A DNA stretch of 64,000 nucleotides, taken from NCBI GenBank assembly GCA_022841445.1, contig JALHRM010000001.1:13002-77001 (forward strand). Direction: 5' to 3'. Below the pieces are notes generated by a model. It searched no databases and was not told the origin of the DNA. It was given only the letters and a program-made list of their open reading frames with translations. Of this stretch, positions 2 to 33,711 are shown one piece after another. The DNA is from Candidatus Saccharimonadota bacterium. Lineage in GTDB: Bacteria; Patescibacteriota; Saccharimonadia; Saccharimonadales; UBA10212. Numbering within the stretch: position 1 is the stretch's first letter; every line of letters begins with the position of its first letter. The position numbers and the translations under genes were made by a program.

Positions 2-1225
2 AATAAAAACATAGTTAAAGACAATACTGGCTACACTTATAAACTTGGTGATTCATACCTGCAGGGCTTAGACCAGTACGACTTGATTGTGCGTTCACCC
101 GGTATCCACCCCAGTAAAATTAAGTCAGCGAATCCTGATTTTCCAGACATCCTAAATAATGTAACCAGCAACGTTAACGAGTTTTTTGCTACCTGCCCGA
201 CTAAAAACATTATCGGCGTAACCGGAACAAAAGGAAAAGGCACGACGTCAACACTTATAACCCGGATGCTAGAAGCCACGGGTAAAACCGTGCACCTAGC
301 CGGAAATATAGGTACAGCGCCTCTTGAGCTACTGCCTGCCATAAACGCAGATGATTGGGTGGTGCTAGAACTAAGCAGTTTTCAACTGATTGACTTAAAA
401 ACCTCTCCGCGTATTGCAATTTGCCTGATGGTCGTCGATGAACACCTGGATTGGCATGCCGACCGCCCCGAATACATATATGCAAAACAGCAGCTATTCG
501 CTCATCAGAAAGAAGCAGATACGGCTATATATATGGCACAAAATCACCCTTTAACTATCGAAATAGTAAACGCCACTAACGGCAAAAAAATAGGCTTTAT
601 GGAAAGTCCAGGCGCCCATATAGATAAAAATAAAATTATTATCGATGACACCGCCATTTGTGAACTAGATGATGTTAAGCTGCCCGGCAAGCACAATTGG
701 CAAAATATTTGTGCCGCCGTAACAACGGTCTGGCAAGTAAGCAAAGATGCTGACACTATACGAGGTGTGCTCACTAACTTTCATGGATTGCCACACCGTA
801 TCGAACTAGTACGAGAATTCGAGAACGTTCGATTCTATAATGACTCCTTCGCTTCGAATCCCGGCGCGACCATAGCAGCTGCACATTCGGTGAGTGGACC
901 GAAAGTACTCATCATTGGCGGTTTCGATAGGATGCTTGATCTAACACAACTAGCAAGCGAACTGCTCAAAATAAAAGACGAATTTCGTAAGATAATGCTC
1001 ATCGGTGCATCGGCCGGGCGGCTAAAGAAAGTGATGGACGAAGCGGGCTTGAGTAATACGATTATCTGCACAGCTCAAACAATGCCCAAAATCATTGAAC
1101 ACGCCCGCTTTTTTGCCAAAAAGGGAGATTCGGTAGTCTTTTCGCCCGGTTTTCCTAGTTTTGACATGTTTAAAAACTTTGAAGACCGCGGCAATCAATT
1201 TAAAAAAACTGTGCAAGACCTATGA
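2..1225 (+). CDS. murD: UDP-N-acetylmuramoylalanine--glutamate ligase MurD (5' end cut by window edge)
   Basis: The frame is open from nt 2 (..DLIVRSPGIHP..). It has the Mur-ligase P-loop GVTGTKGKGTTS and central and C-terminal Mur ligase regions. The TGA stop overlaps the next ATG (ATGA at 1222-1225). Confidence 0.85.
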   Translation, partial: NKNIVKDNTGYTYKLGDSYLQGLDQYDLIVRSPGIHPSKIKSANPDFPDILNNVTSNVNEFFATCPTKNIIGVTGTKGKGTTSTLITRMLEATGKTVHLAGNIGTAPLELLPAINADDWVVLELSSFQLIDLKTSPRIAICLMVVDEHLDWHADRPEYIYAKQQLFAHQKEADTAIYMAQNHPLTIEIVNATNGKKIGFMESPGAHIDKNKIIIDDTAICELDDVKLPGKHNWQNICAAVTTVWQVSKDADTIRGVLTNFHGLPHRIELVREFENVRFYNDSFASNPGATIAAAHSVSGPKVLIIGGFDRMLDLTQLASELLKIKDEFRKIMLIGASAGRLKKVMDEAGLSNTIICTAQTMPKIIEHARFFAKKGDSVVFSPGFPSFDMFKNFEDRGNQFKKTVQDL

Positions 1226-2508
1226 AATACCAGAAGTTTATTTTTAAGAACTACGAGTTTGATGCGTCTTCAGGGATACTAAATCTTTACTACAGTTACG
1301 ACGATACTATTAATTTTGTAGAAACATATGTCTTTGACTTCCCGCTCAAACAATATGATGAACAAGCAGCCAAGCGGGCAATTGAGATACTATTTTTTGT
1401 AGCCGGTGTTTCCTATTACAAGACCTACTTGGCGAAGGAAATAGTTGTTGAGTCGGGTTTGATAGATGCGCCAACTGCTAGTTTTCTGGAACGAACATAT
1501 CAGCGTGGGCTTGGCGAATTTTTCTATATAAACAGACTTAGTCCAAATACGCCGGTTACTTTTCCCGTGAACAGTGAATCACTGCCTACTGTTAATCACT
1601 CATCGCGCACGGGGCTACTCATTGGCCTGGGCGGAGGCAAAGATTCTTTGGTAAGTGTTGAAATTTTAAGGAATCAGCCAAATGCAGCCACCTGGAGTCT
1701 GGGGCACAAAGAACAACTTGAACCTTTGACTAAAAAAATTGGACTTCCCCATTTTTGGGTACAAAGAACATGGGACAAAACACTACTTGAACATAATAAA
1801 TTAGGCTACAACGGGCACGTACCGATATCGGCAATCTTCGCCTGCGTTGGAACAATTGTGTCCGTTTTGTCAGGCTACCTGGATGTAGTGGTGTCTAACG
1901 AACAGTCTGCCGGCGAACCAAATTTGGTTTACCAGGGAATCGAGATTAATCATCAATATTCCAAGTCTCCTCAGTTCGAGAAAGATTACCAAGGACTGCT
2001 GCATATAAAATTCGGTGAATCAACACGTTACTACTCACTGCTCAGACCACTAAGCGAAGTGTACATCGCTAAAATTTTTTCAAAAATAGCTTTTCAAAAG
2101 TATAAGTCGCTGTTCAGTTCGTGCAACAAAGCCTTTACCCATAGCAGTAATTCAATGAGTTGGTGCGGGGATTGTCCTAAATGCGCATTTACTTTCCTAA
2201 TTTTCACGCCGTTTATCGATAAAGCCGAGCTTGAATCGATATTTGGTGGTAAAAACCTGCTGCTTTCCGAAGCACTAGAACCTACTTACCGACAACTGCT
2301 TGGTATCGAAGGAACAAAGCCTCTTGACTGCGTCGGCGAAATCAAAGAGTCTCGTTTTGCCATGAGACTTGCCCAGGAAATATACCCCGAGCTTAGTAAG
2401 TATGTGTTCGATATTCCGGATTCGTACAATTACACAAAAATGTCAGCCCACTTTATGCCTGAAGAAATATACCCCGAACTTATTGAAACAATAGATAAAA
2501 TTACTTAG
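1222..2508 (+). CDS. PP-loop ATP-pyrophosphatase-like protein, candidate MurL-type epimerase (hypothesis)
   Basis: The 428-aa ORF is translationally coupled to murD. It has a GLGGGKDS motif (SGGxDS-type PP-loop) about 145 aa in and a WCGDCPKC cysteine cluster. I could not recognise the N-terminal 140 aa. Confidence 0.4.
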   Translation: MKYQKFIFKNYEFDASSGILNLYYSYDDTINFVETYVFDFPLKQYDEQAAKRAIEILFFVAGVSYYKTYLAKEIVVESGLIDAPTASFLERTYQRGLGEFFYINRLSPNTPVTFPVNSESLPTVNHSSRTGLLIGLGGGKDSLVSVEILRNQPNAATWSLGHKEQLEPLTKKIGLPHFWVQRTWDKTLLEHNKLGYNGHVPISAIFACVGTIVSVLSGYLDVVVSNEQSAGEPNLVYQGIEINHQYSKSPQFEKDYQGLLHIKFGESTRYYSLLRPLSEVYIAKIFSKIAFQKYKSLFSSCNKAFTHSSNSMSWCGDCPKCAFTFLIFTPFIDKAELESIFGGKNLLLSEALEPTYRQLLGIEGTKPLDCVGEIKESRFAMRLAQEIYPELSKYVFDIPDSYNYTKMSAHFMPEEIYPELIETIDKIT

Positions 2509-3339: not shown

Positions 3340-3663
3340 CTAAACTACGGGGTTTGGCGGAGTAGTCGTACCATCAGTTGAAGTTGAATCACCTTCAGGC
3401 TGAGCTGGTTCACCCATAGGAGTTGCTGGTTGTTCAGAAGTTGGGGCGGGAAACGGTGCGGCTGCAGCAGGTGGCTCAGTCGATACTGGGGGTTGCTCCG
3501 GTGCTAGATTCGGTGAAGGTGGTTCCTGCGGCGGAGCAGTTTGTGTTGGAGGAGTTACATCCTGTACTACCTCTGTTGGTAGTTCCTGCGCAGGACTGGC
3601 CGATGGTATTGTCTGTTGGTCTGCGGGCTTAGATTTTCCGAACAATTTGCTTAAAAAACTCAT
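3340..3663 (-). CDS. Proline-rich low-complexity protein (hypothetical)
   Basis: 107-aa ORF immediately upstream of folD on the same strand. Composition is P/A/E/T-rich and disordered, with no recognisable domain. Confidence 0.45.
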   Translation of the reverse strand: MSFLSKLFGKSKPADQQTIPSASPAQELPTEVVQDVTPPTQTAPPQEPPSPNLAPEQPPVSTEPPAAAAPFPAPTSEQPATPMGEPAQPEGDSTSTDGTTTPPNPVV

Positions 3664-3828: not shown

Positions 3829-6384
3829 ATGTCAAAAAATAGCCCGTCCAGTTGGACTAAACTACAATCAAACCTGCAGATAGTAACTGCATCCTTGATT
3901 TTTGTGTCATCACTACTATTACCGATATTTTCTTATACCAAATCATACGCTGCACCAGCGACACTACTAAATGGCGGTCTTGAGCAAGTAACCGGCACTA
4001 CACCTGATTGTTTTAGTCAATCTGGCTGGGGTGATCACGATTTAGCATGGGAACTAACCGATGATACGCACTCTGGCAATGTCGCGCAGTCAGTTACCAT
4101 CGGCAACTATGTCAGTGGTGACCGCAAACTTATGATGACCGAAAACGCTGCCTGTGCGCCCGCGGTTATTCCCGGAGAAGCATACAACATATCCCTGTGG
4201 TACAAGTCATCGTCAATCAGAAACTCACTTACCGTGTTCCGACACTCAGTTGCTGGCTGGACATATTGGACAGACTTAAAAGCCCTGCCTGTAACAGATG
4301 CCTGGACTGAGGTTACAGCAACAACTCCGGCAATACCCGCGGGCACAGACCAAATTTCGTTTGGTGTTTCTATATCGGCAGACGGCACACTCGTCACTGA
4401 TGATTACGGTTTAACGCGAGTTGGCGGTGACCCTGAACCAGAACCTGAGCCAGAACCGCCCACCGAGCTAAGCGTTAATCCAGGCTTGGAAGAAGGTGGT
4501 AACCCGCCGGCTAATTGGTTCTTGGCGGGTTGGGGTGACGCCGCAGTTAACGCTACCGTTACAAATGATGCACATAGCGGCGACCGAGCATACACAATTG
4601 AGCTAAACGGCCGCACGCAAGGTGATTTCAAACTCATACCGACCGAAGCCTCTGCGCCTCAGGTACAGCCAGGAAACATATACAATCTCTCGGCATGGTA
4701 CAAATCTACTACCGATCAAAATAGCGTTACGATTTTTGCCCACACCGCAGCCGGATGGGGATATTGGACTGATCTTCAGACACTACCAATGGCAAATGAT
4801 TGGACAAAGTTCACTATTGCAACACCTCAAATACCTCCGGGCATCGACGCCATCGCCTGGGGCGTGTCAATTTTTGGCGATGGAACGCTTGTTACCGACG
4901 ATTATTCAACAATGCTTCAAGGTCAGGCAGCACCACCACCCGAAGGCCCGGCCACTCAAGGCGAATGGACAGTGCTGGATTACGAGCTACCAATTCGTGC
5001 TATACATTCCACTCTGCTTTATAACGGCAAAGTGCTGCTTATAGCTGGTTCCGGCAATAGTGTTGAAGACTTTGAGGCAGGCACATTTAAGGCAAGCATC
5101 TGGGATCCAATCAGTGGGGTATTTAACACGCTTGATGTGCCTAAGGATATGTTCTGCGCCGGTCATGTAACACTGGCTGACGGGAGAGTTCTTATACAAG
5201 GCGGCACTAAATCTTACCCAACTACTGCCACTGCAGCTGATTACGGTGGCTTGAAAGATTCCTGGATTTTTGACCCAGAAACTGAAACGTTCACCGCCAC
5301 AAACGATGCTAATGAAGGACACTGGTACCCAACGCTTACGCAGCTAGGCAACGGCGATGTATGGATGGCAGGAGGCTTGAAAGAAGATACTACTGGTGCA
5401 GTCAATACTGAGTACTTCGACTTTGAAACAGAACAGTGGCTGCCTACAGGGCAAGTTCCGCAAACATGGTCGTTCTGGGGGCTTTACCCGCATATGTTCC
5501 TGATGCAAGATGGTCGTTTGTTCTACAGTGGCGGGCACACTTTCGGCAATAATATACCCGGTACCGGCGCAGCAATCTACGATTACCAAAATGCCACCAT
5601 TGCTGAGGTTCCTGGTCTCCGCGAAAAAGACATGCGGGATCAGTCAGCATCAGTCCTACTTCCACCAGCTCAAGATCAAAAAGTGCTCATCACGGGTGGC
5701 GGGAACATCAATACTGCAAACCCTGGCATCAAACTAACTGACATTATTGACCTAAAACAACCAAACCCTATTTACCAACCTGGGCCAGACCTACCAGGAC
5801 TTGGCAAAATGTATGTCAATGCAACTATCCTGCCTGATCGAACAGTATTCCTAAGTAATGGCGGCCAGCTTAACCGTGATGATTCCACCAACGTGATGAC
5901 CGCCGCCGTATACGACCCCGAAACCAACACCATGAAGCCTGTAGCGGCCGACCCAATCGGCCGTAACTACCACAGTTCTTCGGTACTATTACCTGACGGA
6001 CGTGTAGTAGTGCTTGGATCTAATCCAGGTGATGGCACATTCGAAATGCGAATTTCTGTCTACCAGCCGCCATATTCCTTCCGTACTGTTCGCCCAGATA
6101 TCACCAATGCCCCCACTCAAGCAACGTATGGCCAAAGCTTTAATTTCAACGTTAATGCTCCAAACAAACTTGTTAAGTGGGCGCAGCTTTTGCGACCAAT
6201 GTCAGTTACACACCAGACCGATTCAAACCTTCGACTTGTAGACCTGCCAATTGCGGTCAATAACGGTATTGCTACAGTGACCGTTCCTGAAAACTCCAAC
6301 TTACTGCCTCCTGGCCCGTACATGCTTACTATCACAGATTCTGACGGGATCCCTTCGATTGCAACGTGGATAATGATCCGTTAA
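3829..6384 (+). CDS. Secreted CBM-CBM copper-radical oxidase (galactose/glyoxal oxidase, AA5/GlxA-like)
   Basis: N-terminal signal/TM segment, two paralogous ~150-aa CBM_4_9-like modules joined by a PEPEPEPEPP linker, then a kelch propeller plus DUF1929-like C-terminus. Motifs include FCAGH (Cys codon 5155-5157), GHWYPT (Tyr 5326-5328), RNYHSS (Tyr-His 5968-5973) and SVTHQTD (His 6211-6213). The start could instead be GTG 3808. Confidence 0.75.
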   Translation: MSKNSPSSWTKLQSNLQIVTASLIFVSSLLLPIFSYTKSYAAPATLLNGGLEQVTGTTPDCFSQSGWGDHDLAWELTDDTHSGNVAQSVTIGNYVSGDRKLMMTENAACAPAVIPGEAYNISLWYKSSSIRNSLTVFRHSVAGWTYWTDLKALPVTDAWTEVTATTPAIPAGTDQISFGVSISADGTLVTDDYGLTRVGGDPEPEPEPEPPTELSVNPGLEEGGNPPANWFLAGWGDAAVNATVTNDAHSGDRAYTIELNGRTQGDFKLIPTEASAPQVQPGNIYNLSAWYKSTTDQNSVTIFAHTAAGWGYWTDLQTLPMANDWTKFTIATPQIPPGIDAIAWGVSIFGDGTLVTDDYSTMLQGQAAPPPEGPATQGEWTVLDYELPIRAIHSTLLYNGKVLLIAGSGNSVEDFEAGTFKASIWDPISGVFNTLDVPKDMFCAGHVTLADGRVLIQGGTKSYPTTATAADYGGLKDSWIFDPETETFTATNDANEGHWYPTLTQLGNGDVWMAGGLKEDTTGAVNTEYFDFETEQWLPTGQVPQTWSFWGLYPHMFLMQDGRLFYSGGHTFGNNIPGTGAAIYDYQNATIAEVPGLREKDMRDQSASVLLPPAQDQKVLITGGGNINTANPGIKLTDIIDLKQPNPIYQPGPDLPGLGKMYVNATILPDRTVFLSNGGQLNRDDSTNVMTAAVYDPETNTMKPVAADPIGRNYHSSSVLLPDGRVVVLGSNPGDGTFEMRISVYQPPYSFRTVRPDITNAPTQATYGQSFNFNVNAPNKLVKWAQLLRPMSVTHQTDSNLRLVDLPIAVNNGIATVTVPENSNLLPPGPYMLTITDSDGIPSIATWIMIR

Positions 6385-6397
6385 GGGGGAAATCGTC

Positions 6398-6979
6398 ATG
6401 GGAAAATCAACTAAGAAGCCGACAAAACAACCTTTGATAAAGCTTTTGCTTTCGCAGCCCCGCAGCAAAGTTATCGCCGTTGCTTCGGCAGTAGTCATAA
6501 CCATCGCTTTTGGCGTGATCGGCATACTGAAACTTATTGATGAACCGAAGGCCACCGCAGTAACAACAACTGAGGAAACGCTACAGAATCAGGTGGATGC
6601 ATCGGACGGTGCACCACGTTCCGGACGCGACCCAGCCAACCAGAAACAAAATAGTTTAGCCTCGGCTGCTTCGCAACCTACAGGCACTGGTAAGCGTGTT
6701 GCAAAGCCTGCAGCTGGAGTTAGCGGCTCAACCGTCCATAACAATCAGGCCGCCAACAACAATGCGGCCGGTTCCGGCATCGGCGCAAATGGCTGCTACG
6801 TTGACTACGGCAAGCAAGGCGAGCAGTGTGTTCCGGTGCATGCAGCCACCAACGGCGTTTTGACGTGCGATGGTGTCCGCACCCACGGCGGGTTCCCGAA
6901 CGGTGTTATTGTGAGTGGTACTGACCGCTTTAACCTTGACACCAACAAAGACGGCACTGCTTGCGGTGCTGGCGACTAA
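6398..6979 (+). CDS. Membrane-anchored protein with Excalibur-like Ca-binding C-terminus
   Basis: N-terminal TM segment (VIAVASAVVITIAFGVIGIL), a low-complexity linker, and a C-terminal CDGVRTHGG..DRFNLDTNKDGTACG pattern resembling the Excalibur domain. Confidence 0.45.
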   Translation: MGKSTKKPTKQPLIKLLLSQPRSKVIAVASAVVITIAFGVIGILKLIDEPKATAVTTTEETLQNQVDASDGAPRSGRDPANQKQNSLASAASQPTGTGKRVAKPAAGVSGSTVHNNQAANNNAAGSGIGANGCYVDYGKQGEQCVPVHAATNGVLTCDGVRTHGGFPNGVIVSGTDRFNLDTNKDGTACGAGD

Positions 6980-8262: not shown

Positions 8263-9828
8263 TTATTTTTGGACTTTGTAGATGAGGACTTTTTGGTTGT
8301 CTTGGCCAAATTCTTTCACTAGTTCAGCGTTATCCAAAGCCTTATTGACAGTAGGAAATGTCTTTTCAAAGTCTTTACCGCTGATACTTGGACCGTTTAG
8401 CATTACATAGTCAATACCGCGCCACCCGCCAAGTTTTTCCATAACTTCGGGGTCTGTCTCGGTTTTATACAGCCACACAGGATCAGGCTTATCAAACCCC
8501 TGCTTAACGAGGTCAGTCCAAAATGTAGACTCTACAACCAACTGATTGCTTGGATTAATGTTTTTTGTAACCCAATCTACTGCCTGACGACTTGATGCAT
8601 CGTGATCTTTGGTCGTGATAGCGTGAATGCCCTTGCCCCAATCAGGTGCAACAACCGCCGCTGTAGTTGCAAGCAGCAGCGTGGCAGCAAATCCTGCTGC
8701 AATGCGTGAGACGCTAATTCCTTTTTTACAAAGCGGCTTGATAATGAACTGGTCTAGTACACCAGCAAATACTAATGCAGCAAATGGAAGCAGTATAACT
8801 ACATATGGATATGGCAAGTAGCCCGTTCGTAGTAGGAGCAGCAAGCCAAGCAGCAAGCCAAAAGCTGCAACCCGCAAGTGGCGAACAAAGAAAGCAAACG
8901 GCAGCGACAGTGCTCCGATAAGTAGCAGCCAATAGTCGATTGATAGCCAATACTCTGCCAAGCCGCGGCTGCCGCTGGATGCATCGATGATACTGCCACT
9001 GCCTTCGCGTCCAAATAGTTGCCAAGCCAACGTACCAAACAGCGATACGTGACCTTCCCCTGGGAAAAGCTCGCTTTTTAGGCCAGCATAAAGCGCGTAG
9101 ATAGCGCCGATCATCACAAACACAACCCCAAAACTGGCCAGTTGGTAGCGGCGGTTGCGAGCATCACTCGAGCGCCAAAGAGCGTAGATCAGTACAGGTA
9201 ATAAGAGTACAAACGTTTCTTTACTGAGTACTGCAATAGCCATGCAAGCTGCACTCGCCAGGGCTGTGACAACGTGTTTTCTAGGGCTTAGCGCTAACAG
9301 AAATGCACCTAGTAGCCATGGTAGTGCGACATTATCCAGTAGCACGTAGCGGCTAAATTCAATCGTTAGTGGACTAAGTGCGTAGGCTAGCGTACCTATA
9401 GCTGCTGCAACCACACCAACGCGCAAACGCCGGGCAAGCGCATAAATCAATGCAACCACTAAAACATGCATGAATACCATAAATTCACGGCCAGCAACGA
9501 TGGAAGAATCATAGCGATCCAAAGCGTTTGTCGCACCAAGATGCAAGGCCATTTGCATCCAGCCAGCTGGCGGATGATCATACCAATAGGTGTAGTGAGT
9601 TAATGTACCTCGCTCTTGGAGAGCATAGGCTTGGGATACATATGTGCCTTCGTCCTCAAAGCGCTGTGGGTAGCCAGTCATGTTCATACCGCTGACAACA
9701 GCAGAAACAGCCACCAGTGCCGTTACTACAGCAGTGTCCAACTTGTGACGCTTAAACCAAGCAATCAACTTGGAATTCGTTGGTTTAGCAGTCGCCTTTT
9801 TAGCGGTCTTCGGGGCTTGCTTAGGCAT
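8263..9828 (-). CDS. GT-C fold polyprenyl-phosphate-dependent glycosyltransferase (PMT/GT39-like)
   Basis: Multi-TM protein with an RFEDEGTYVSQAYAL loop motif typical of PMT_2/ArnT-like enzymes and a ~130-aa soluble C-terminus. The start is set at ATG 9828 because AAGGAG sits 6 nt upstream. It overlaps the upstream stop by 8 nt. Confidence 0.6.
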   Translation of the reverse strand: MPKQAPKTAKKATAKPTNSKLIAWFKRHKLDTAVVTALVAVSAVVSGMNMTGYPQRFEDEGTYVSQAYALQERGTLTHYTYWYDHPPAGWMQMALHLGATNALDRYDSSIVAGREFMVFMHVLVVALIYALARRLRVGVVAAAIGTLAYALSPLTIEFSRYVLLDNVALPWLLGAFLLALSPRKHVVTALASAACMAIAVLSKETFVLLLPVLIYALWRSSDARNRRYQLASFGVVFVMIGAIYALYAGLKSELFPGEGHVSLFGTLAWQLFGREGSGSIIDASSGSRGLAEYWLSIDYWLLLIGALSLPFAFFVRHLRVAAFGLLLGLLLLLRTGYLPYPYVVILLPFAALVFAGVLDQFIIKPLCKKGISVSRIAAGFAATLLLATTAAVVAPDWGKGIHAITTKDHDASSRQAVDWVTKNINPSNQLVVESTFWTDLVKQGFDKPDPVWLYKTETDPEVMEKLGGWRGIDYVMLNGPSISGKDFEKTFPTVNKALDNAELVKEFGQDNQKVLIYKVQK

Positions 9829-12043
9829 CTGCAGCTCCTTTAGCAAAACTTGCTTTCGCTGCATCAAGTGCGCCGTAAGAGTTACCGAGCCGATGTTTGC
9901 CGCTGTGTGGAGTCTTGTACCAAGTGTTGTCACCTCGAAGTTCACGTATAACTGCCCACAATGCGGCAGCGTTCAAAACAAGTTGATACGGTATTTGGGT
10001 TAGAAGTAGTAGGGCGTAATGACGCAAACGAATTTTTTGCTTAAAATCGGCACCAAAATCATGAAGGAACACCGCATTAAATATCATCAACAGCGACACC
10101 GGGATGAGTGGAAGATACATCAAAATAACAAGCGCTACCGGCGCATCCAAAAACGCAATGGCCAGAAGCGATACCGGTACAAACAAACTGATGATAGCGA
10201 GCAGAACAGGCCCAAGCAAAACATAGTCAGCCAGCAGTCTTTGGCGGAAGCTTGGCAAACGTCGCCAGACACCTTTGCGCCATTCGTGGAAGAACCCCTG
10301 GTTCCAGCGCACTCGCTGTTTGAATAGTCCGCGCAGGGTATCCGGTGTTTCTTCGCGTGTAGCAAGTAACGGTTCATAGTACACGGCTGTTTTGGTTTGG
10401 AACTTAGCACTCAGCAGTACTCCGAGCGAGCAGTCTTCGGTGAGTGTATCCGGCCAACCACCAGCTCGCTTGAGTAGCGACAACCGCACAAAAACAGTGT
10501 TACCGCCAAGTGGCATAAACTGATTATCAGACTGAAACGCCATGCTGCTGTTAAACCATCGATAGTACTCAAGTACATTGTGCATCGAATACCAGGATGA
10601 ATCATAGTTAATCAACTGTACGCCACCCTGCACCACACCTGTTTTGCGATCGCGAAAGGCTGCATCAACGTGCATAAGCAGTTCAGGGTGAACAGTATCT
10701 TCGGCATCGATCACGCCAACTATACTAAAATCTTCGCGCTTGATAATTTTGAATACGTAGTTCAGCTGCTTGGGCTTACTCGGCTTAACTCCGGCAAGTA
10801 GCGGATACTCGATTACTCGAACGCGGGATTCTTTCTTTTCAACTTTGCGGGCAACTTTAAGTGTGGCTGTGTCATCGCTACAGATAACTGTCACAATGCT
10901 CATACTAGGGTGAGTCTGCTTTGCAAGCTGGCGGAGTGTATCTGCCAATACATCTGCCTCGTGTCGAGCTGGGACGATGATGCAAAATCGTTCCTTAACA
11001 CCGTTTTGTGCTGGGAATCTTAACCGGTCAACACTACCTGGCTCGCGGTACGAATAAATAGTTCGCCACACTTCCATACTTGACTGTGACAGCAAAACGA
11101 GGCTTGCGATGGCGAGTAGAACAGACACCGTCAGCACAGGGTTAAAACCAAGACCGAAACTTATGATGGCAACCATTAGCACTGACGCATAAATACTGAA
11201 TGGGACTCTTGCTTTTTGGTTAAGAGAACTTTTGCTGCTTGTGGCTTCGGCAAATGCCCACCGATCACTTACAACATAATTAAGCAGCATAATAACCGCC
11301 AAAGAAACTACATTGGCGACAAGATAATTAACCGTAAAATTGAATGCTGCGCCAAAAACAGCGAAGCTAAACTGCAAGCTGATAAGAGCAGCGAACAGAC
11401 CATAGTTTAGTAGAGTTGTAGCTCCTCGTGACAGCAAAAATTTGATTGATGCTAGTCGGCTAATCGTACGATCACGCCACGTGATGTTGCGGTTCAAAAC
11501 ATAGTTAAGATAAAACGTCATTGCCAGTTGAACAGCATTTGCTGCGAGTGGTGACCACTGCAGAAATTCTACAAGAACATACAATAGTCCCATGCCAGTG
11601 CCAAAGACACCGCCACCGATCAGGCCGAACTGCACGAATTTTTTGGATAATACCGATTGGACTCCACCAAGAACACGATTTTTTGATACGTTGCCTACAA
11701 AGTCTTTTAAGTAGTCAGGATCAGGTTCTTCTGAGGGCATGATGATCACTTCCGAAGTGTTTTTAGCATACGATCGTCCAGTTTTAATCAAAGATCCTCG
11801 GTTAAATACAGTTTTTTTGTGGAGTACAACGCGGGCGTTAGTAATATTGCTTTCAATAATTGTTTCGGCAGCCTTTGATATTGCGTCGTAGTCATGTTCG
11901 TTGCAGATAACAATAATCTCATAATCACTAAGAGGATACTTAGCAGAGGCGGCAGATCTAATCGTACGATCCAACGAGTCTTTGTCTGCCAAAACCGGTA
12001 TAAGCACGCTGATGGACTGCTTTTTTGAACTAGCCAGTGACAT
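9821..12043 (-). CDS. Multidomain glycosyltransferase: degenerate GT2 half + GtrA-like 4-TM domain + processive GT2 (D,D,D,QxxRW) + C-terminal TMs
   Basis: The N-terminus SVLIPVLADKD..IIVICNEHD is GT2-like but has SEEPD where DxD is expected. A GtrA-like segment follows (FVQFGLIGGGVF..YVLNRNITWRDR). The second GT2 has IIVPARHEADV, DAED and QRVRWNQG. Confidence 0.65.
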   Translation of the reverse strand: MSLASSKKQSISVLIPVLADKDSLDRTIRSAASAKYPLSDYEIIVICNEHDYDAISKAAETIIESNITNARVVLHKKTVFNRGSLIKTGRSYAKNTSEVIIMPSEEPDPDYLKDFVGNVSKNRVLGGVQSVLSKKFVQFGLIGGGVFGTGMGLLYVLVEFLQWSPLAANAVQLAMTFYLNYVLNRNITWRDRTISRLASIKFLLSRGATTLLNYGLFAALISLQFSFAVFGAAFNFTVNYLVANVVSLAVIMLLNYVVSDRWAFAEATSSKSSLNQKARVPFSIYASVLMVAIISFGLGFNPVLTVSVLLAIASLVLLSQSSMEVWRTIYSYREPGSVDRLRFPAQNGVKERFCIIVPARHEADVLADTLRQLAKQTHPSMSIVTVICSDDTATLKVARKVEKKESRVRVIEYPLLAGVKPSKPKQLNYVFKIIKREDFSIVGVIDAEDTVHPELLMHVDAAFRDRKTGVVQGGVQLINYDSSWYSMHNVLEYYRWFNSSMAFQSDNQFMPLGGNTVFVRLSLLKRAGGWPDTLTEDCSLGVLLSAKFQTKTAVYYEPLLATREETPDTLRGLFKQRVRWNQGFFHEWRKGVWRRLPSFRQRLLADYVLLGPVLLAIISLFVPVSLLAIAFLDAPVALVILMYLPLIPVSLLMIFNAVFLHDFGADFKQKIRLRHYALLLLTQIPYQLVLNAAALWAVIRELRGDNTWYKTPHSGKHRLGNSYGALDAAKASFAKGAADA

Positions 12044-13161
12044 TACTTGGTGTCCTCACTATCAGATGATTCAAACTTTATCCCAAACCAGGCGACAATC
12101 ATTAAACCAACTGCACCGATCCACCACTGCCACTCAACCTGTTGTATGGCGAGTAAGGACGCAATGAGCGGTTGGACTAAAAATGCCAGCACGTTGTACC
12201 TGGTGGTCACGAGTCGTCGGACTCGCGCCATAGCCGATTCGCTCTTTTTTGGCTTGTCGAGTATTAGTAGCGATGCAGCTACAGTTAGCAAGCCAAGTTC
12301 AGTCGCAAGCAAAGCAGCAGTTACTGAATCAAAATCGTTGAGCCGAACTGCACCCACATAGGTGGCGATCGTAATAACAGCTCCACTGAACGCTGCGGCA
12401 TACTGGCGCATCAGTCGTTTGAAAGGAGAAACTTTGTTAAGCTCATGTGCAACGCGGATAAACTCGACAATGTCTTTATGTGAGAGTTTAGATGTACCCG
12501 ACATGCGGTCTCGGAATGTTATTGGTACTTCGGCAACCCTGAATTGCTGTGAGATAAACTCGTTACTAAGAAATAATTGGAACCCAAACCCGCTAACCCG
12601 GGCACGGCGATATGGAATTTGGCAAAGCGCAGCCTTGGTCATCGCCTTGAATCCGCCAGTCAGTTCTGCCATATCGGTTTCTATACCGCCCACAAATCGC
12701 GCCACAAAATGTGCGATACGAGTATTAAGAATACGAATAAGTGGCCAACTGCCCGGTATCATACCGCCACTTACGTAGCGTGATCCAACGGCGATATCGT
12801 AGCCTTGGTCAATCTTCTTAAGAAGATGGGGCACTTCTGCCGGGGAATGTGACAAATCAGCATCCATCATGATTACAACATCAAATTTTAGATTCTTTCG
12901 GGCGTAGTCGAAACCGCGTCTGTATGCCGCGCCCAGTCCGTTCTTGCGACCTTGAATCAAATATAGGTTGTTATAACGCTTCTGAATCGAGCGCACAACA
13001 TCTGCCGTACCGTCAGGCGAACGGTCATCAATAACCAATACAGAAATGTGGTAATTTGTCTTTTTCGTAGCGCGAAGATTGAGTAGTTCGTCAAGAATAA
13101 GCTCAACGTTATATCGCTCGTTGTAAGTTGGGAGGGTGATTAATGCTCTTTTTGTCGCCAT
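12043..13161 (-). CDS. Polyprenol-phosphate sugar synthase (Dpm1/Ppm1-like GT2) with C-terminal TM region
   Basis: LITLPTYNERYN, VLVIDDRSPDGT and MMDADLSHSP motifs. The C-terminus has 3-4 TM helices. The stop overlaps the next start (TAATG). The start was chosen at ATG 13161 (MATKRAL..). Confidence 0.7.
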   Translation of the reverse strand: MATKRALITLPTYNERYNVELILDELLNLRATKKTNYHISVLVIDDRSPDGTADVVRSIQKRYNNLYLIQGRKNGLGAAYRRGFDYARKNLKFDVVIMMDADLSHSPAEVPHLLKKIDQGYDIAVGSRYVSGGMIPGSWPLIRILNTRIAHFVARFVGGIETDMAELTGGFKAMTKAALCQIPYRRARVSGFGFQLFLSNEFISQQFRVAEVPITFRDRMSGTSKLSHKDIVEFIRVAHELNKVSPFKRLMRQYAAAFSGAVITIATYVGAVRLNDFDSVTAALLATELGLLTVAASLLILDKPKKSESAMARVRRLVTTRYNVLAFLVQPLIASLLAIQQVEWQWWIGAVGLMIVAWFGIKFESSDSEDTK

Positions 13162-13339
13162 AATAACTTCTTTAATGAAAATTAAAAAAGGGTGCCCACC
13201 GTTTGAAGGCATACCCAAATCTAACCCAATCAATATTAACTACTATACAGTATTATTGATTATTTATCAATAGTATTTTAGACATTTATATTAATTCACC
13301 CGAAAGTCCCGTACTATGTGGCAAGGAGATACTGCATTT

Positions 13340-13912
13340 ATGAGTCGGATTGTACCGAAAGATACCGTAACAATACCCACTGATGCCGAAAAAGTGTTCG
13401 AAGGAATGATATACGAAGTCTACCAGTGGCAGCAGAAAATGTTTGACGGTAGCTATCACACGTTTGAGATGTTGAAGCGACCTGACACAATAAAAGTCAT
13501 CGCCATAAAAGACAATAAGGTTGTCATCACTGAACAGGAACAGCCCGGCCTACCGCCGTTCATTGATGTTCCCGGTGGCCGGCACGATGTTGATGGAGAA
13601 TCTGAACTTGCAGCTGCACAGCGTGAAATGCTTGAAGAAACCGGTATGACATTCGGTAATTGGCGGCTCATTGGTATTCATCAACCATTCACAAAAATTG
13701 ACTGGCTTGTGTACACATTTTTGGCTACTGACTTTATCAATCAAGTTCCTCAGCAGTTAGACGCTGGCGAAAAAATAACCACCGTCTTGATGGATTTTGA
13801 AGAAGTGAAGCGGCAAACAGCGCAACCGAAAGCACGTTATCTACCGAAAGAATTTGAATTGGTAGAAAGTCTAGACGAACTCATCCAACTACCCGAATTC
13901 AACGCTAGTTAA
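13340..13912 (+). CDS. NUDIX hydrolase
   Basis: Nudix box GGRHDVDGESELAAAQREMLEETG. AAGGAG lies 11 nt upstream of ATG 13340; the ORF track start at 13316 is also possible. Confidence 0.7.
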   Translation: MSRIVPKDTVTIPTDAEKVFEGMIYEVYQWQQKMFDGSYHTFEMLKRPDTIKVIAIKDNKVVITEQEQPGLPPFIDVPGGRHDVDGESELAAAQREMLEETGMTFGNWRLIGIHQPFTKIDWLVYTFLATDFINQVPQQLDAGEKITTVLMDFEEVKRQTAQPKARYLPKEFELVESLDELIQLPEFNAS

Positions 13913-14768
13913 GTACAATTATTAGCGCCCCGACAACGGCGAGTACTGAACCAATAGCTCGCCGCGTCATATCTTTGCGTTCTTTCAGCAGGATACTTCC
14001 TAAGATAACACTTACGATTATCTGAAGAAGAAACAGTGCACTTACAAGCGGTGCGTTGTCGGCAATTTTCAAACTCGTAAAGATTAGCGTTAGCCCTACC
14101 GAGCAAAGAATTCCAAAACCCAGGTAATGGTGCCGATGACCAGGCCACATTAAGTGCTTGAGACTTCCTATAACAGTAGGCCGCAGCAAAATAAAAATAA
14201 AGCTGTTTATGATAAATGTAATAAGTAGGTAGCTGGCCGGTTCAGCTTCTCGGTATATTACCTGGTCTGTGAGTATGCCAATTCCATATATAAATGCCGT
14301 AGCTGTTGCAAACAAGATGCCCGTTTTTGATTGATCATTAAACAAGTTTTTTCGAAAAAACACCACAAATATGGCAGCCATAATGACAAAAGCGCCAAGA
14401 CTTTCCAGCAGTGTTAAGCCAACACCAAACAGCACAACACTTGCGACCCAAGTAACAATAAGTCGTGATGTCAGCAAAATAGTATATTCGCCGACACCAA
14501 TATGCGCTAAAGCTTTTTGGCTGGTCAGCCATCCGACAAACGCCAGTGCGATATTAAGGATAAAAACTGGCAAAAAATTCTGAACTGGCGGCATATCGAA
14601 ACCAAAAATGACGTTATAAATCAGGAGTCCCAGCCCTGTGGATACCGAAAGCAGGAAGGCTGAACTATAAAAATCAAGCTTATTCTTATGGGATAATGCG
14701 ACTCTCCGTACAACATCAGATAAAGCTAGCACAGCAACACCGCTTAACGCATAAATGTACCAAGGCAT
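13905..14768 (-). CDS. EamA/DMT-family transporter
   Basis: 287 aa with about 10 TM helices in two repeated halves, as is typical of EamA-type transporters. Confidence 0.55.
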   Translation of the reverse strand: MPWYIYALSGVAVLALSDVVRRVALSHKNKLDFYSSAFLLSVSTGLGLLIYNVIFGFDMPPVQNFLPVFILNIALAFVGWLTSQKALAHIGVGEYTILLTSRLIVTWVASVVLFGVGLTLLESLGAFVIMAAIFVVFFRKNLFNDQSKTGILFATATAFIYGIGILTDQVIYREAEPASYLLITFIINSFIFILLRPTVIGSLKHLMWPGHRHHYLGFGILCSVGLTLIFTSLKIADNAPLVSALFLLQIIVSVILGSILLKERKDMTRRAIGSVLAVVGALIIVLN

Positions 14769-14813
14769 AAACAGATTATAATTCAGCAGGATAGATCTTT
14801 ATAATGATTCACT

Positions 14814-15287
14814 ATGAGCATTAAATTCATTGCGGCTATCGACGCGAACCGAGGTATCGGCAAGAACGGGAAGTTACCGTGGGATCTGCCAAACGACCGG
14901 GCTCAGTTTTATGAAAAAGTAAAAAACGGGCATGTACTGATGGGAAGCAGTACATATTCCGAATTACGTGGCAAGATAGAGCACATTGCTCACTGCACTA
15001 TTTTTTCTAGTCATAAGTACGGAGCCGATGATATTCAAACGGTCGACGATCCACTTAAATACATGAAGACCCTAAACTCGGATGTCTGGGTCATAGGAGG
15101 GGCATCCATTTACGAGCTACTTATGCCATTCGCGGATGAACTACACATTACCCAAATTGAAGCAATTTTTGACTGTGACAGATATTTTCCAGAATTTAAG
15201 AAAAATTTTTCTCTAGCAGAAGAAAGTCCACCAATGTTAGAAAATGATATAACGTACAAATTCCAAGTTTGGAAGCGAAGTAATTAA
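14814..15287 (+). CDS. folA: Dihydrofolate reductase
   Basis: The IAAIDANRGIGKNGKLPWDLPNDRAQF N-terminus matches the DHFR signature, followed by VWVIGGASIYE. Length is 157 aa. Confidence 0.85.
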   Translation: MSIKFIAAIDANRGIGKNGKLPWDLPNDRAQFYEKVKNGHVLMGSSTYSELRGKIEHIAHCTIFSSHKYGADDIQTVDDPLKYMKTLNSDVWVIGGASIYELLMPFADELHITQIEAIFDCDRYFPEFKKNFSLAEESPPMLENDITYKFQVWKRSN

Positions 15288-15402
15288 CAACTTTGCTCCA
15301 CTTTAATCGTTTGATTTAATCAATAATTGCGGGTTACTGTTGCAATAATTGACTGAATGGTATTAGCTTAAAAGTAATTGAATTAATGGGGGCATAAGCC
15401 AG

Positions 15403-15876
15403 ATGAAACACCGAAGTCCAATCGCAGTATTCTTTTTACCATTTGTAACGTTCGGAATTTACGGACTAGTTTGGGAAGTTAAAACTAAGGTTGAGATGAA
15501 GCGACTTGGAGCAGATATTCCAACAGCCTGGTTGATAATTGTGCCGATTATCAACATATACTGGCTCTGGAAATACAGTATGGGGGTAGAGAAGGTAACG
15601 AACGAGAAAATATCAGGAATTATGGCTTTTGTGTTGCTGATTTTACTTGGACCAATCGGCATGGCAATTATCCAGAATGATTTTAATAATGTTGCCGCCA
15701 GCGGTTCTGGCGGGCAGCCCGCACCGGCTACCGGTACTCAAATGGCCGCAGCACAACCCGACAATAGCTTTGGCGGGCCAGCTGCACCTGCGCCCCAATC
15801 TGGAACTACTCCTCCACGGCAAACGACTCCACCCCAGAATAACTCCAATACTCCGCCTCCTCCACTCGTACAGTAA
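15403..15876 (+). CDS. Small membrane protein, DUF4234-like, with Pro-rich tail
   Basis: FVTFGIYGLVWEVK motif, 3-4 TM helices, and a P/A/Q-rich C-terminus. Confidence 0.4.
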   Translation: MKHRSPIAVFFLPFVTFGIYGLVWEVKTKVEMKRLGADIPTAWLIIVPIINIYWLWKYSMGVEKVTNEKISGIMAFVLLILLGPIGMAIIQNDFNNVAASGSGGQPAPATGTQMAAAQPDNSFGGPAAPAPQSGTTPPRQTTPPQNNSNTPPPPLVQ

Positions 15877-15888
15877 TAAGCTCGAGTC

Positions 15889-16323
15889 ATGCTCAATAAA
15901 ATATCTCCAGCCAAAATATACTTTTACCATATTATTACTTTGGGGCTGTACTTTTTTTACTGGGCTGCAAAAAGTCGTGCGGCAGTCAATTCTTCGGCCA
16001 AACAACCTTTGATTCCTAGCACTTGGCTGCTTGCGATTCCGTTCGCCAACTATTGGTGGATGTGGCAATACGCTCGAGCACTAGAATATGTTTCGTACAA
16101 ACGAATCCGATCAACTGACACGTTTTTGTTTTTTATTCTGGCAACTAATTTTATTTGGCTAGTATGGCAAGTGTTTTCCATATTTGACCCAAAATGGCTC
16201 GCAGGACATTTTGGTGTGATGAATTTAGTATTGTCGGCTATTGCCATAACGATTATCACAGTAATTCTAGGCCTTGGATTTTTCTGTGCTGTTATGCAGG
16301 GAAAAATAAATAAAATTCGCTAG
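15889..16323 (+). CDS. Small membrane protein, DUF4234-like paralog
   Basis: IITLGLYFFYWAAK motif. It sits in tandem with the preceding gene. Confidence 0.4.
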   Translation: MLNKISPAKIYFYHIITLGLYFFYWAAKSRAAVNSSAKQPLIPSTWLLAIPFANYWWMWQYARALEYVSYKRIRSTDTFLFFILATNFIWLVWQVFSIFDPKWLAGHFGVMNLVLSAIAITIITVILGLGFFCAVMQGKINKIR

Positions 16324-16394
16324 GTGTGAAAAATATGTGGTCGAAATTGCCAAAACAGAGGTGGTTTGCTAAAATTGCTTAGCTGTTACAGATC

Positions 16395-16471
16395 GGGCCA
16401 GTAGCTCAGCTGGTTAGAGCAGCGGCCTCTTAAGCCGCGTGTCGAGGGTTCGAGTCCCTCCTGGCCCTCCA
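16395..16471 (+). tRNA. tRNA-Lys (anticodon CTT), CCA encoded
   Basis: A 77-nt cloverleaf folded by hand. Acceptor GGGCCAG/CTGGCCC, anticodon arm GCGGC-CTCTTAA-GCCGC, and T arm GAGGG-TTCGAGT-CCCTC. Confidence 0.9.
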
Positions 16472-16481
16472 ATTTAGCCGT

Positions 16482-32078: not shown

Positions 32079-33602
32079 ATGAATGCAACAAATGCAAAGA
32101 TTGGCCGCCTTATACACCAAATAAGGCAAGAACGTGGTCTTACACAAGCAGAATTTGCTCGAAAACTTGGCACTAGTCAGTCTGCCGTCAATCGTATTGA
32201 GCACGGTAATCAGAACCTAAGTCTTGAGACGCTTGGCCGCATTAGCGATACTCTCAACAAACAACTTATCAGCCTTAATTCTGGTGCAGTAAATCTGCGT
32301 GTCGAAGGCGGCCGCGAACTAAAAGGTACTATTGAAGTTAAAACTTCCAAAAATGCTGCCGTTGCCTTGCTCTGTGCCAGCCTACTCAACAAAGGCACAA
32401 CCAGGCTTAAGAAAGTCGCCCGCATTGAAGAGGTCAACCGAATCATCGAAGTTCTGCAAAGTATCGGTGTACATATTCGCTGGGTGAACGAAACAGACCT
32501 GGAAATAAAACCTCCAGCTCAACTAAATCCTGAGAGCATTAATAAAGAATCTGCTAAGAAAACTCGAATAGTCATCTTGCTTGCCGGTGCACTGATGCAT
32601 GAACACGATACGTTCAAAATTCCTTATGCTGGTGGTTGCGAACTTGGCAAGCGGACAGTTCTACCCCATTTGTATGCACTTGAAGAATTTGGCACATCTG
32701 TTACGGCGAAGAGCGGACATTACCACATCGCCGTCAATCGTCACTTGCCTAAACGCCCGATTGTTTTATACGAATCAGGTGATACAACCACAGAAAACGC
32801 CATCATTGCCGCTGCACGTACGCCTGGCGAGACAATCATTAAGATGGCTAGCGCCAACTACCAAGTACAAGATCTTTGCTTTTTCCTCAAACGACTTGGG
32901 ATCAAAATCGAAGGTATAGGCACAACTACGCTTCGCATTCAAGGTGTACGGACTATCAAAAAGAACATTAGTTACTCACCAAGCGAAGACCCGGTCGAAG
33001 CCATGACGTTTATATCAGCTGCCATTACCACTAATTCAGAAATTACCATCAAACGAATACCAATTGAATTTTTGGAACTTGAACTACTGAAGCTCGAAAA
33101 AATGGGCGTCAATTACACAATGTCAAAGCCATACAAAGCCGACAATGGCAACACTGATCTGGTCAATATTACAGTGCATAAACACAATGGTTCACTAAAA
33201 GCACCCGAGGAAAAGATTTATGGTCGTCCGTACCCTGGCTTTAACATCGACCACGTTCCGTATTTTGTGCCGATTGTCGCCGTCGCTCATGGTCGCAGCC
33301 TGATACATGACTGGGTATTCGAAGACCGCGCCCTTATGTTCACTGAGATGAAAAAAATCGGCGTCAAGCTAGAATTAGCCGATCCACACCGCGTATTCAT
33401 CGAAGGTCCGACTACTTGGCGATCCGCCGATGTCGTTTGCCCGAACGGCCTCCGACCGGCAGTCATGCTGCTTATCGGCATGTTGGCAGCACCCGGCACA
33501 TCAGTGTTGCGCAATGTTTACACCATAAATAGGGGTTATGAAGACCTCGCTGCCCGTTTTAATAGTCTAGGTGCCAGTATTACTGTCCTAAACGACGTTT
33601 AG
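32079..33602 (+). CDS. murA: XRE HTH domain fused to UDP-N-acetylglucosamine 1-carboxyvinyltransferase MurA
   Basis: Aa 1-65 are IGRLIHQIRQERGLTQAEFARKLGTSQSAVNRIEHGNQN (HTH_3). MurA follows from LRVEGGRELKGTIEVKTSKNAAVALL, with the active-site loop PYAGGCELGKR (Cys retained). It is one uninterrupted ORF with no internal Met at the junction. Confidence 0.8.
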   Translation: MNATNAKIGRLIHQIRQERGLTQAEFARKLGTSQSAVNRIEHGNQNLSLETLGRISDTLNKQLISLNSGAVNLRVEGGRELKGTIEVKTSKNAAVALLCASLLNKGTTRLKKVARIEEVNRIIEVLQSIGVHIRWVNETDLEIKPPAQLNPESINKESAKKTRIVILLAGALMHEHDTFKIPYAGGCELGKRTVLPHLYALEEFGTSVTAKSGHYHIAVNRHLPKRPIVLYESGDTTTENAIIAAARTPGETIIKMASANYQVQDLCFFLKRLGIKIEGIGTTTLRIQGVRTIKKNISYSPSEDPVEAMTFISAAITTNSEITIKRIPIEFLELELLKLEKMGVNYTMSKPYKADNGNTDLVNITVHKHNGSLKAPEEKIYGRPYPGFNIDHVPYFVPIVAVAHGRSLIHDWVFEDRALMFTEMKKIGVKLELADPHRVFIEGPTTWRSADVVCPNGLRPAVMLLIGMLAAPGTSVLRNVYTINRGYEDLAARFNSLGASITVLNDV

Positions 33603-33680: not shown

Positions 33681-33711
33681 TACACCGAATTAACTGTTCG
33701 GAGTGGTGATT

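Follow-up and report, generated by a model that had tools for sequence, protein, structure and literature searches.

We analysed a stretch of 64,000 nucleotides from a Candidatus Saccharimonadota bacterium (positions 13,002 to 77,001 of the forward strand of contig JALHRM010000001.1, assembly GCA_022841445.1), hereafter called the window, and describe here one of its genes, which encodes an apparently intact copper radical oxidase of the GlxA/galactose oxidase type with two CBM_4_9-like carbohydrate-binding modules (CBMs), together with the genes that accompany it. The window has a G+C content (GC) of 44.9% and encodes a RecA protein (62064-63095, minus strand) whose named relatives, at 79-82% identity, all belong to Candidatus Saccharibacteria/Saccharimonadales, in agreement with the original prediction, made from the letters alone, that the genome is of the candidate phyla radiation (CPR) type. 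The open reading frame (ORF) list gives the oxidase gene on the plus strand an end at 6384 and a start at either 3808 (GTG) or 3829 (ATG); since a GAGAGG Shine-Dalgarno-like motif stands at a plausible spacing, about 12 nt 5' of ATG 3829, we adopted the 851-amino-acid product of 3829-6384, which is also the protein that was matched to GlxA (4UNM), modelled with AlphaFold2 (AF2) and compared using Foldseek. A scan for promoters and terminators around the gene returned counts no higher than in shuffled sequence.

The AF2 model, for which an alignment of 54 family members served as input, has a mean predicted local distance difference test (pLDDT) score of 88.8 and resolves the protein into five ordered parts. 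At the N-terminus, a hydrophobic helix (amino acids 16-34, positions 3874-3930, hydropathy peak of 2.11; a helix over residues 9-30 in the model) would be a signal anchor or else a signal peptide subject to cleavage, and is followed by an SYA|AP motif. Next comes a first CBM_4_9-like beta-sandwich module (amino acids ~46-199, positions 3964-4425), modelled as strands between residues 62 and 197 at pLDDT >90, in which Cys61 and Cys109 are invariant across the 54 sequences. A flexible Pro/Glu-rich linker (GDPEPEPEPEPPTELS, positions 4426-4473), part of which reads PEPEPEPEPP, is disordered in the model (pLDDT <50 at residues 200-211) and separates this module from a second one (amino acids ~216-366, positions 4474-4926; residues 230-366 in the model). 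The two modules are 48% identical (E=1e-48), the second one passes the Pfam threshold for CBM_4_9 (PF02018, covering the CBM4/9/16/22 type; 28.5 bits for a gathering score of 25.9), and Foldseek aligned the pair with the tandem CBM22 modules of Xyn10C (4XUP) at E about 6e-12. The tandem modules that had been noticed from the sequence are thus genuine members of this fold, and they are predicted to bind carbohydrate. Related modules fused to a polysaccharide deacetylase domain in the same window lend support to this glycan-targeting role.

The catalytic region follows. A kelch beta-propeller domain (amino acids ~378-748, positions 4960-6072), which carries C443, W499, Y500, Y714 and H715, was modelled with about 29 strands (residues 379-746), consistent with the seven blades that were anticipated, and a short loop (amino acids ~461-477) stands in it at the place where GlxA has its Domain 2. 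The protein ends with a galactose-oxidase-like E-set (DUF1929) domain (positions 6091-6378; the C-terminal beta domain of the model, residues 757-850), which contains H795, a predicted copper ligand, and which matched Pfam GO-like_E_set (PF09118) at E=6e-23.

Four galactose oxidase active-site motifs had been proposed for this protein, and each of them was recovered in frame: FCAGH with C443 at 5155-5157, HWYPT with Y500 at 5326-5328, NYHSS with Y714 and H715 at 5968-5973, and VTHQTD with H795 at 6211-6213. A phmmer search against all PDB sequences returned GlxA from S. lividans (4UNM) as the best match (E=1.2e-99); fungal copper oxidases came next (~1e-26), and 1GOF, a galactose oxidase, was matched at E=1.7e-23. 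In the resulting alignment, C443, W499, Y500, Y714, H715 and H795 correspond to Cys121, Trp288, Tyr289, Tyr501, His502 and His589 of GlxA (a numbering that we checked against the chain index, from which it is offset by 30, with the W288A entry 5LQI as reference), and all six residues are invariant in the 54 family members, which come from low- as well as high-GC genomes. The set comprises the four copper ligands, namely two Tyr (Y500 and Y714) and two His (H715 and H795), the residues of a Tyr-Cys cofactor pair (C443/Y500) and a stacking Trp (W499) that the original prediction had not mentioned. Considering the E-values obtained with GlxA, galactose oxidase and the E-set model, the motifs cannot be attributed to chance, and we infer from these alignments that the protein would bind copper, form the Tyr-Cys crosslink and act as a Cu- and O2-dependent oxidase.

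An opposite view would be that we are dealing with a non-catalytic surface protein, kelch- or lectin-like, and that its motifs match by coincidence. Kelch propellers are common, and of the two Pfam models that had been suggested as a check only the DUF1929/E-set one gave a clear match, since Glyoxal_oxid_N (PF07250) scored 32.8 bits, below its gathering score of 37.5. For the 120 homologs listed, the precomputed Pfam lists all give PF07250. Fortuitous motifs are hard to reconcile with an alignment to GlxA at E=1e-99 in which every ligand is matched, with the invariance of these residues and with the E-set match. Structural comparisons pointed in the same direction: the best Foldseek match of the oxidase model was again GlxA 4UNM (E=3e-44, TMt 0.74), followed by fungal enzymes of auxiliary activity family 5 (AA5) at ~1e-33 (TMt 0.81 for 5C92), whereas kelch-only proteins appeared at ~1e-12, about 20 orders of magnitude weaker, showing that the oxidase does not group with non-catalytic kelch proteins. 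We consider the non-catalytic reading highly improbable.

The idea that the protein is a GlxA-like homolog was only partly upheld, as GlxA is its best match in both sequence and structure but the two proteins are not orthologs. GlxA (SCO2837; 4UNM; S. lividans/coelicolor), which the literature counts among the AA5 copper radical oxidases as a bacterial member (PMC11267884), shares with the window oxidase the propeller, the E-set domain and all the site residues, as well as an N-terminal membrane helix (a transmembrane (TM) anchor in GlxA; PMC11022532) and a genetic link to a processive membrane glycosyltransferase (GT) of family 2 (GT2). The alignment between them, however, falls into two stretches (query 370-466 with chain 16-114, and query 469-850 with chain 228-614), and the stretch of GlxA that is skipped (~AA 146-258; chain residues 115-227) is Domain 2, defined as AA 143-260 (PMC11022532). 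On the NCBIfam GlxA equivalog model NF052501, the oxidase reached 446 bits for a cut-off of 800. An exhaustive search with the catalytic domain among 1.84 billion cluster representatives retrieved clusters of many architectures, of which 28,675 matched at E<=1e-3 and 2,002 did so at E<=1e-30, and the matches of GlxA type that do bear Domain 2 (two matched stretches in proteins of 620-675 amino acids) are only ~36-40% identical to the oxidase. The partner genes differ too: GlxA is encoded between cslA, a cellulose-synthase-like GT2 gene that lies upstream, and the endoglucanase gene cslZ, which lies downstream, while the cslA-glxA-cslZ arrangement is not present at the window locus, no glycoside hydrolase was found among the neighbours of the oxidase, and its partners are instead a GT-C glycosyltransferase, a GT2 resembling dolichol-phosphate-mannose synthase (DPMS) and an orphan small protein. 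The missing Domain 2, the sub-threshold equivalog score, the low identity and these different partners together show that it is no GlxA ortholog, and the two CBM_4_9-like modules are an N-terminal addition that GlxA does not have.

More distant relatives were also compared. Fungal AA5 enzymes (galactose 6-oxidase 1GOF of AA5_2, alcohol oxidase 5C92 and glyoxal oxidase 9N3U of AA5_1) have the same catalytic fold and the same residues at the Cu/Tyr-Cys site, although they are only ~19-22% identical to the window protein (E about 1e-23 by sequence and about 1e-33 by Foldseek). Galactose oxidase likewise carries a carbohydrate-binding beta-sandwich N-terminal to its propeller, but this is an F5/8 type C domain instead of a CBM_4_9/22-like tandem, and the window protein further differs from the fungal enzymes in being bacterial, in its predicted membrane anchoring and in its position inside a GT cluster. 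The tandem layout of its beta-sandwich modules is that of the CBM22/CBM_4_9 pairs of glycoside hydrolases such as Xyn10C (4XUP; ~16% identity), but in the latter the modules are fused to a hydrolase, while in the window they are fused to an oxidase and, in a second gene, to a polysaccharide deacetylase. This second gene (37468-39990, plus strand) encodes an 840-amino-acid protein of secreted type with three CBM_4_9-like modules (37624-38043, 38398-38847 and 38866-39315; 23-28% identical to those of the oxidase), a Big_7 domain and the polysaccharide deacetylase domain. In another locus of the oxidase family (L013), its ortholog lies less than 9 kb from the oxidase gene, beside a sortase and a GT2-deacetylase pair.

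The closest partner of the oxidase gene is an orphan gene encoding 193 amino acids (6398-6979, plus strand), which begins 13 nt past the oxidase stop and is preceded by an AGGGGGA ribosome-binding site. Its product has a TM helix at amino acids 22-46 and contains the conserved motif GAPRxGRDPAxQxQxSLASAA; it ends with a domain of ~65 amino acids that was modelled by AF2 at pLDDT 93-97 and that contains four invariant Cys and, at its end, an Excalibur-like LDxNxDGxACGxGD motif. A homolog of this small ORF was found downstream of the oxidase gene in every locus for which downstream DNA was available. None of its 41 homolog clusters has a Pfam domain (Excalibur appeared only below threshold, in 8 of the 41), and searches gave neither an NCBIfam match nor a PDB fold match. 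The ORF also has the highest GC (54.0%) and the highest GC at third codon positions (GC3; 52.6%) of the 51 window genes that were scored (z about 2.9 and 2.5, respectively), which may reflect its Gly/Ala/Pro-rich composition or a different history.

Beyond this small gene lie three GT genes on the minus strand. The first (8263-9945) encodes a PMT-like GT-C protein with ~10 TM helices, as judged from a TM scan and from the Pfam PMT model (30.9 bits for a gathering score of 22.7); its true start is probably downstream of the GTG at 9945. The second (9821-12043) encodes a 740-amino-acid membrane GT2 in which an N-terminal GtrA-like domain precedes a processive-synthase core, with the motifs TED535 and QRVRW576 followed by TM helices at 613-654. 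It matched Pfam Glyco_tranf_2_3 (E=3.6e-40), GtrA_DPMS_TM and Chitin_synth_2, and its top NCBIfam models were PgaC and NodC, far below their cut-offs (75 bits for a PgaC cut-off of 422). The third (12043-13233) is a DPMS-like GT2 of the polyprenyl-phosphate-sugar synthase type, which matched the dolichol-P-mannose synthase 5MLZ at E=2.5e-34 and NCBIfam models of the AglJ/PpgS type. Searches of the processive GT2 and of the PMT-like protein against PDB sequences gave no matches, and a HAD hydrolase gene is also found among the neighbours of the oxidase.

A comparison of 13 independent loci that encode members of the oxidase family showed that this neighbourhood is conserved, since GT2 and GT-C homologs lie within 10 kb of the oxidase gene in all but one of them (12/13). 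The original prediction had connected the oxidase with processive GT2 genes of the window by analogy with GlxA, and the synteny makes this link stronger than could be known from a single sequence: of the several such genes that it had noted, the relevant one is that at 9821-12043. High-GC loci, among them L005, L007 and L015, have all these genes on one strand, with GT2 first and GT-C, oxidase and small ORF after it, the DPMS-like GT2 being fused to the processive GT2 in actinobacterial loci (L005 and L007), and the oxidase start overlaps the stop of the PMT-like GT-C gene in L007 and L015, indicating an operon. Altogether, the oxidase belongs to a conserved cluster with a small Cys-rich protein, a PMT-like GT-C, a processive GT2 and a DPMS-like GT2.

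The PgaC/NodC-like GT2 that is the second processive GT2 in the window overlaps a polysaccharide deacetylase gene (33703-36344, plus strand), next to a sortase gene (36345-36941, minus strand), and reached 98 bits on TIGR03937 for a cut-off of 422 bits. The same GT2-deacetylase pair is found ~8 kb from the oxidase gene in locus L003 and ~3 kb from it in L013, which suggests that Saccharibacteria have, in the vicinity of the oxidase gene, another recurring glycan module, whose type would be PNAG (poly-N-acetylglucosamine) or chitin-like. On the other side of the oxidase gene, and divergent from it, a 107-amino-acid ORF (3340-3663, minus strand) is Pro/Thr/Glu-rich, of low complexity and without family match, and is 73% conserved in the syntenic loci L001 and L002.

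Lipid-linked extracytoplasmic glycosylation is carried out by several three-component systems, such as GtrA/GtrB/GtrC, PpgS-Rv3779 and Ppm1-Pmt. The neighbours of the oxidase resemble these systems in combining a DPMS/PpgS-like GT2, a GtrA-like domain and a PMT-like GT-C, but differ from them in that a processive synthase domain with TED/QxxRW motifs and a copper radical oxidase are added; to our knowledge, no described system of this kind includes an oxidase.

By analogy with GlxA and from the domain layout described above, we propose that the protein is a mononuclear copper radical oxidase that has a Tyr-Cys cofactor and acts outside the cytoplasm, where it would be held at the cell surface by its N-terminal helix and/or its CBMs. 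The DPMS-like GT2 would load a sugar onto polyprenyl phosphate, and this lipid-linked donor would be used outside the membrane by the GtrA-like domain and the PMT-like GT-C, while the processive GT2 with its TED/QxxRW motifs would polymerise and export a beta-glycan. The oxidase would then dock on this glycan via its CBMs and use O2 to oxidise a primary alcohol (probably the C6-OH of a hexose) or an aldehyde on it, with production of H2O2; alternatively or additionally, it may assist the synthase in the way that GlxA assists CslA. The membrane protein that is small and Cys-rich would be co-transcribed and may be an obligatory accessory, with docking or metal/Ca handling as guesses at its role.

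The glycan is not the only substrate that can be imagined for such an enzyme. The oxidase may instead act on small molecules such as glycolaldehyde, glyoxal or simple alcohols, serving H2O2 production or carbonyl detoxification, in which case the CBMs would be a mere wall tether and the GT genes would be unrelated. GlxA itself, a Tyr-Cys cuproenzyme that releases H2O2 from glycolaldehyde, its best in vitro substrate, oxidises sugars only poorly, its true substrate being unknown (PMC4736821). Moreover, the AA5 range extends over alcohol, aldehyde and glyoxal oxidases, and the superfamily of the catalytic domain is both huge (the 28,675 clusters above) and architecturally diverse. What speaks against a small-molecule substrate is the association with GT2/GT-C genes, seen in two phyla and 12/13 loci, which together with the two CBMs indicates a polymeric carbohydrate context, and the identity of the stacking residue, which is a Trp as in galactose oxidase and GlxA. 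We regard this alternative as quite unlikely.

Another possibility would be that oxidation is secondary and that the protein is mainly a non-redox accessory subunit, which stabilises or activates the GT2 synthase and guides the nascent chain, as in the pairs GlxA-CslA and BcsB-BcsA. The complex of CslA, a GT2, with GlxA alone is sufficient for cellulose synthesis in vitro, and full CslA activity requires the TM anchor and the extracellular regions of GlxA (PMC11022532); the window oxidase likewise has an N-terminal helix and is linked to a processive GT2. However, the invariance of the six redox-site residues in 54 diverged sequences argues that the chemistry is under selection, the oxidase and GT2 genes are convergent in Saccharibacteria and locus L003 has no GT2 nearby. 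The oxidase also evolves apart from the GT genes, as seen below from pairwise identities and from locus L016, which is hard to fit with a tight, co-evolving complex. A mainly structural role thus appears rather unlikely to us.

The family is widely distributed. Full-length homologs were found in more than 120 clusters (at 90% identity), which are 57-94% identical to the window oxidase; many carry both the label Saccharimonadales or Saccharibacteria and the annotation "DUF1929 / galactose oxidase-like domain-containing protein". Exact-sequence look-ups of the 851-amino-acid oxidase and of the small ORF returned no record, but a 464-kb NCBI contig encodes products identical to the small ORF and to the RecA of the window. 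Loci at 67-74% GC encode proteins of the same architecture that are 61-78% identical to the window protein, despite the 45% GC of the latter. These high-GC carriers include a 4.16-Mb contig, a 2.3-Mb contig, metagenome-assembled genomes (MAGs) labelled Solirubrobacteraceae, Actinomycetota or Actinomycetes, and a cluster that contains a Nakamurella sp. RefSeq protein (homolog WP_395727351.1), while a member from a Streptomyces MAG is only 48% identical to the window oxidase. A locus from a MAG labelled "Limnocylindrales" (L008) has 52.5% GC, a Saccharibacteria-type synteny and GT genes that are 61-63% identical to those of the window; this locus and the member P0106 (labelled "Polaromonas sp.") are probably mis-binned Saccharibacteria contigs.

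Pairwise comparisons among the loci revealed that the oxidase and its small partner do not follow their neighbours. For pairs of two low-GC loci, two high-GC loci and one of each, the median identities were 69.4, 68.5 and 67.2% for the oxidase and 43.9, 41.3 and 41.5% for the small ORF, whereas they were 60.8, 43.2 and 36.0% for the PMT-like gene and 64.1, 54.8 and 40.5% for the processive GT2. The oxidase/small-protein cassette is thus without phylum signal while the GT genes next to it carry one, a pattern that points to transfer of the cassette across phyla. Locus L016 (an 829-kb contig at 58% GC; positions 9001-16695), in which the genes are convergent in the Saccharibacteria style, is a further case of an oxidase decoupled from its GT genes, with identities to the window proteins of 69% for the oxidase but 35% for the PMT-like protein and 28% for the GT2.

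A phylogeny with GlxA as reference had been suggested as a way to detect horizontal transfer, and we built a neighbour-joining (NJ) tree of 118 members rooted with GlxA, in which taxonomy was approximated by amino-acid composition (a GARP/FYMINK ratio >= 1.85, calibrated on loci of known GC, was taken as high-GC-like). The basal grade of this tree is made of high-GC-like, actinobacterial-type sequences, and the low-GC sequences are, essentially without exception, gathered in a derived group. At least 25 of the 31 high-GC-like sequences fall outside the low-GC clade in 79 of 100 bootstraps. One oxidase from a locus at 73.6% GC (P0013, 10001-12541 of L005, GCA_003427375.1) falls inside the low-GC group in 100/100 bootstraps, although its GT2 and PMT-like neighbours are of actinobacterial type and only 35-45% identical to those of the window, which fits with a replacement of the cassette by a Saccharibacteria-type allele. 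An Actinomycetota/Saccharimonadales pair of donor and recipient is biologically sensible because Saccharibacteria are associated with Actinobacteria, experimentally in the oral microbiome and by frequent co-occurrence in soil and plant-associated samples (PMC8406219). We therefore favour, with moderate confidence since the tree is NJ only, has a long outgroup branch and relies on a composition proxy for taxonomy, an old transfer of the cassette that likely went from Actinomycetota to Saccharimonadales, followed by later exchanges that left at least one high-GC lineage nested among Saccharibacteria sequences. A recent import of the oxidase gene into the window genome was considered and rejected, as its GC3 is typical of the window (z=0.56). 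On this sequence evidence, the family is not specific to CPR bacteria and horizontal transfer would be the main story of its evolution.

The same distribution raises the question of whose glycan is oxidised. As a host-directed factor, the displayed oxidase would bind (via its CBMs) and oxidise a glycan that an actinobacterial host makes with homologous GT2/GT-C enzymes, serving attachment through aldehyde-amine crosslinks, a local weakening of the wall or the generation of H2O2. Saccharibacteria live as epibionts on Actinobacteria and are found together with them in soil (PMC8406219), the oxidase/small-protein cassette and a homologous cluster are found in Actinomycetota with oxidases of 61-78% identity, and the CBMs imply docking on a glycan. 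In most Saccharibacteria loci, however, the organism's own GT2/GT-C genes lie beside the oxidase gene, suggesting that the substrate is self-made, and a host-directed role seems unlikely, if attractive. A broader proposal, which we put forward only tentatively and judge improbable, is that the cassette is a surface-glycan module repeatedly exchanged between epibionts and their actinobacterial hosts and used on the GT2/GT-C glycan of the host, and that the small Cys-rich protein takes the place of the Sco/DtpA route, as a new factor dedicated to the maturation or docking of bacterial copper radical oxidases.

We thus return to the reading of a surface-glycan copper radical oxidase that works with a GT cluster and whose cassette was exchanged between Actinomycetota and Saccharimonadales. 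Several observations weigh against it. On the side of the enzyme, the Glyoxal_oxid_N score is below the gathering score and the analogy with GlxA does not define a substrate, because GlxA is poor on sugars and its own true substrate is unknown. Maturation of GlxA depends on the Sco and ECuC chaperones and on the DyP peroxidase DtpA (PMC4736821), and neither a Sco/ECuC copper chaperone nor a DyP peroxidase nor a catalase was found among the ORFs of at least 150 amino acids in the 64-kb window. Concerning the gene cluster, L003 is the sole locus with no GT2/GT-C gene within 10 kb of the oxidase gene, and the GT genes of the low-GC (Saccharibacteria) loci are convergent with the oxidase gene and downstream of the small ORF, so that they are not co-transcribed with it. 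As for the transfer, the typical GC3 of the oxidase gene leaves no compositional trace of it, the flat identities could result in part from strong constraint or saturation, the exact derived clade recurs in only 39/100 bootstraps, and the tree has the limits given above. Weighing all this, we lean, if only slightly, towards this reading as a whole.

Other genes of the window were also inspected. No HMA (GMxCxxC) motif is present in any frame of its 64 kb, and an ORF resembling a P-type ATPase (44366-45844, plus strand) was rejected as a copper pump, as it has neither a CPC nor a DKTGT motif; its 492-amino-acid product comprises only an E1-E2_ATPase actuator/TM region and is a degenerate or repurposed remnant of a pump. 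The window also encodes MurB, MurD, a MurL-like epimerase, folate and purine genes, a sortase and an LCP protein. The MurL-like UDP-MurNAc-L-Ala-L-Glu epimerase homolog (1222-2508, plus strand; 330 bits on NF041275 for a cut-off of 700), whose gene is coupled to that of MurD (83-1225), corresponds to the alternative D-Glu route described for Xanthomonadales, found here in a Saccharibacterium, and L001 has it too. An unusual 507-amino-acid fusion (32079-33602, plus strand) joins an N-terminal HTH_3 domain of the Cro/C1 type to an enolpyruvyl transferase of the EPSP_synthase/MurA type. A fused PurS-PurL protein (953 amino acids) and an adjacent PurQ are encoded at 48769-52409 (minus strand), and SHMT, FolD, DHFR and a 5-FTHF cyclo-ligase are encoded elsewhere in the window, so that the window is richer in genes for de novo purine synthesis and one-carbon metabolism than one would expect of a reduced CPR genome.

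An O2-dependent enzyme had been called unexpected in a lineage usually regarded as fermentative, but this premise is weak: oxygen use by environmental Saccharibacteria is established, and O2 dependence is not surprising in them. The enzyme class is already known as well, close homologs have been annotated automatically, and the finding changes no paradigm. What is new is the two-CBM architecture without Domain 2, the partnership with an orphan small protein and GT2/GT-C enzymes, and the distribution across Saccharibacteria and Actinomycetota; our search, within the library of papers that it covered, found none that connects copper radical oxidases with Saccharibacteria or with CPR bacteria.

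Apart from the GlxA of Streptomyces, copper radical oxidases of bacteria have hardly been studied. The system described here would be the second case in which such an oxidase is paired with a glycan synthase, and one of distinct architecture, in which the CBMs and the GT genes could reveal the polymer that is acted on. It also provides a concrete prediction of an extracellular enzyme that would depend on O2 and Cu in a CPR lineage, in keeping with aerobic life in soil. If the cassette is indeed exchanged with hosts and used on them, it may mediate covalent attachment to the host wall by aldehyde-amine crosslinks, or the mimicry or remodelling of the host surface. More generally, it is a well-defined candidate for genes exchanged by Saccharibacteria with Actinomycetota, to which their known hosts belong, and thereby offers a testable handle on the surface biology of epibionts and their hosts.

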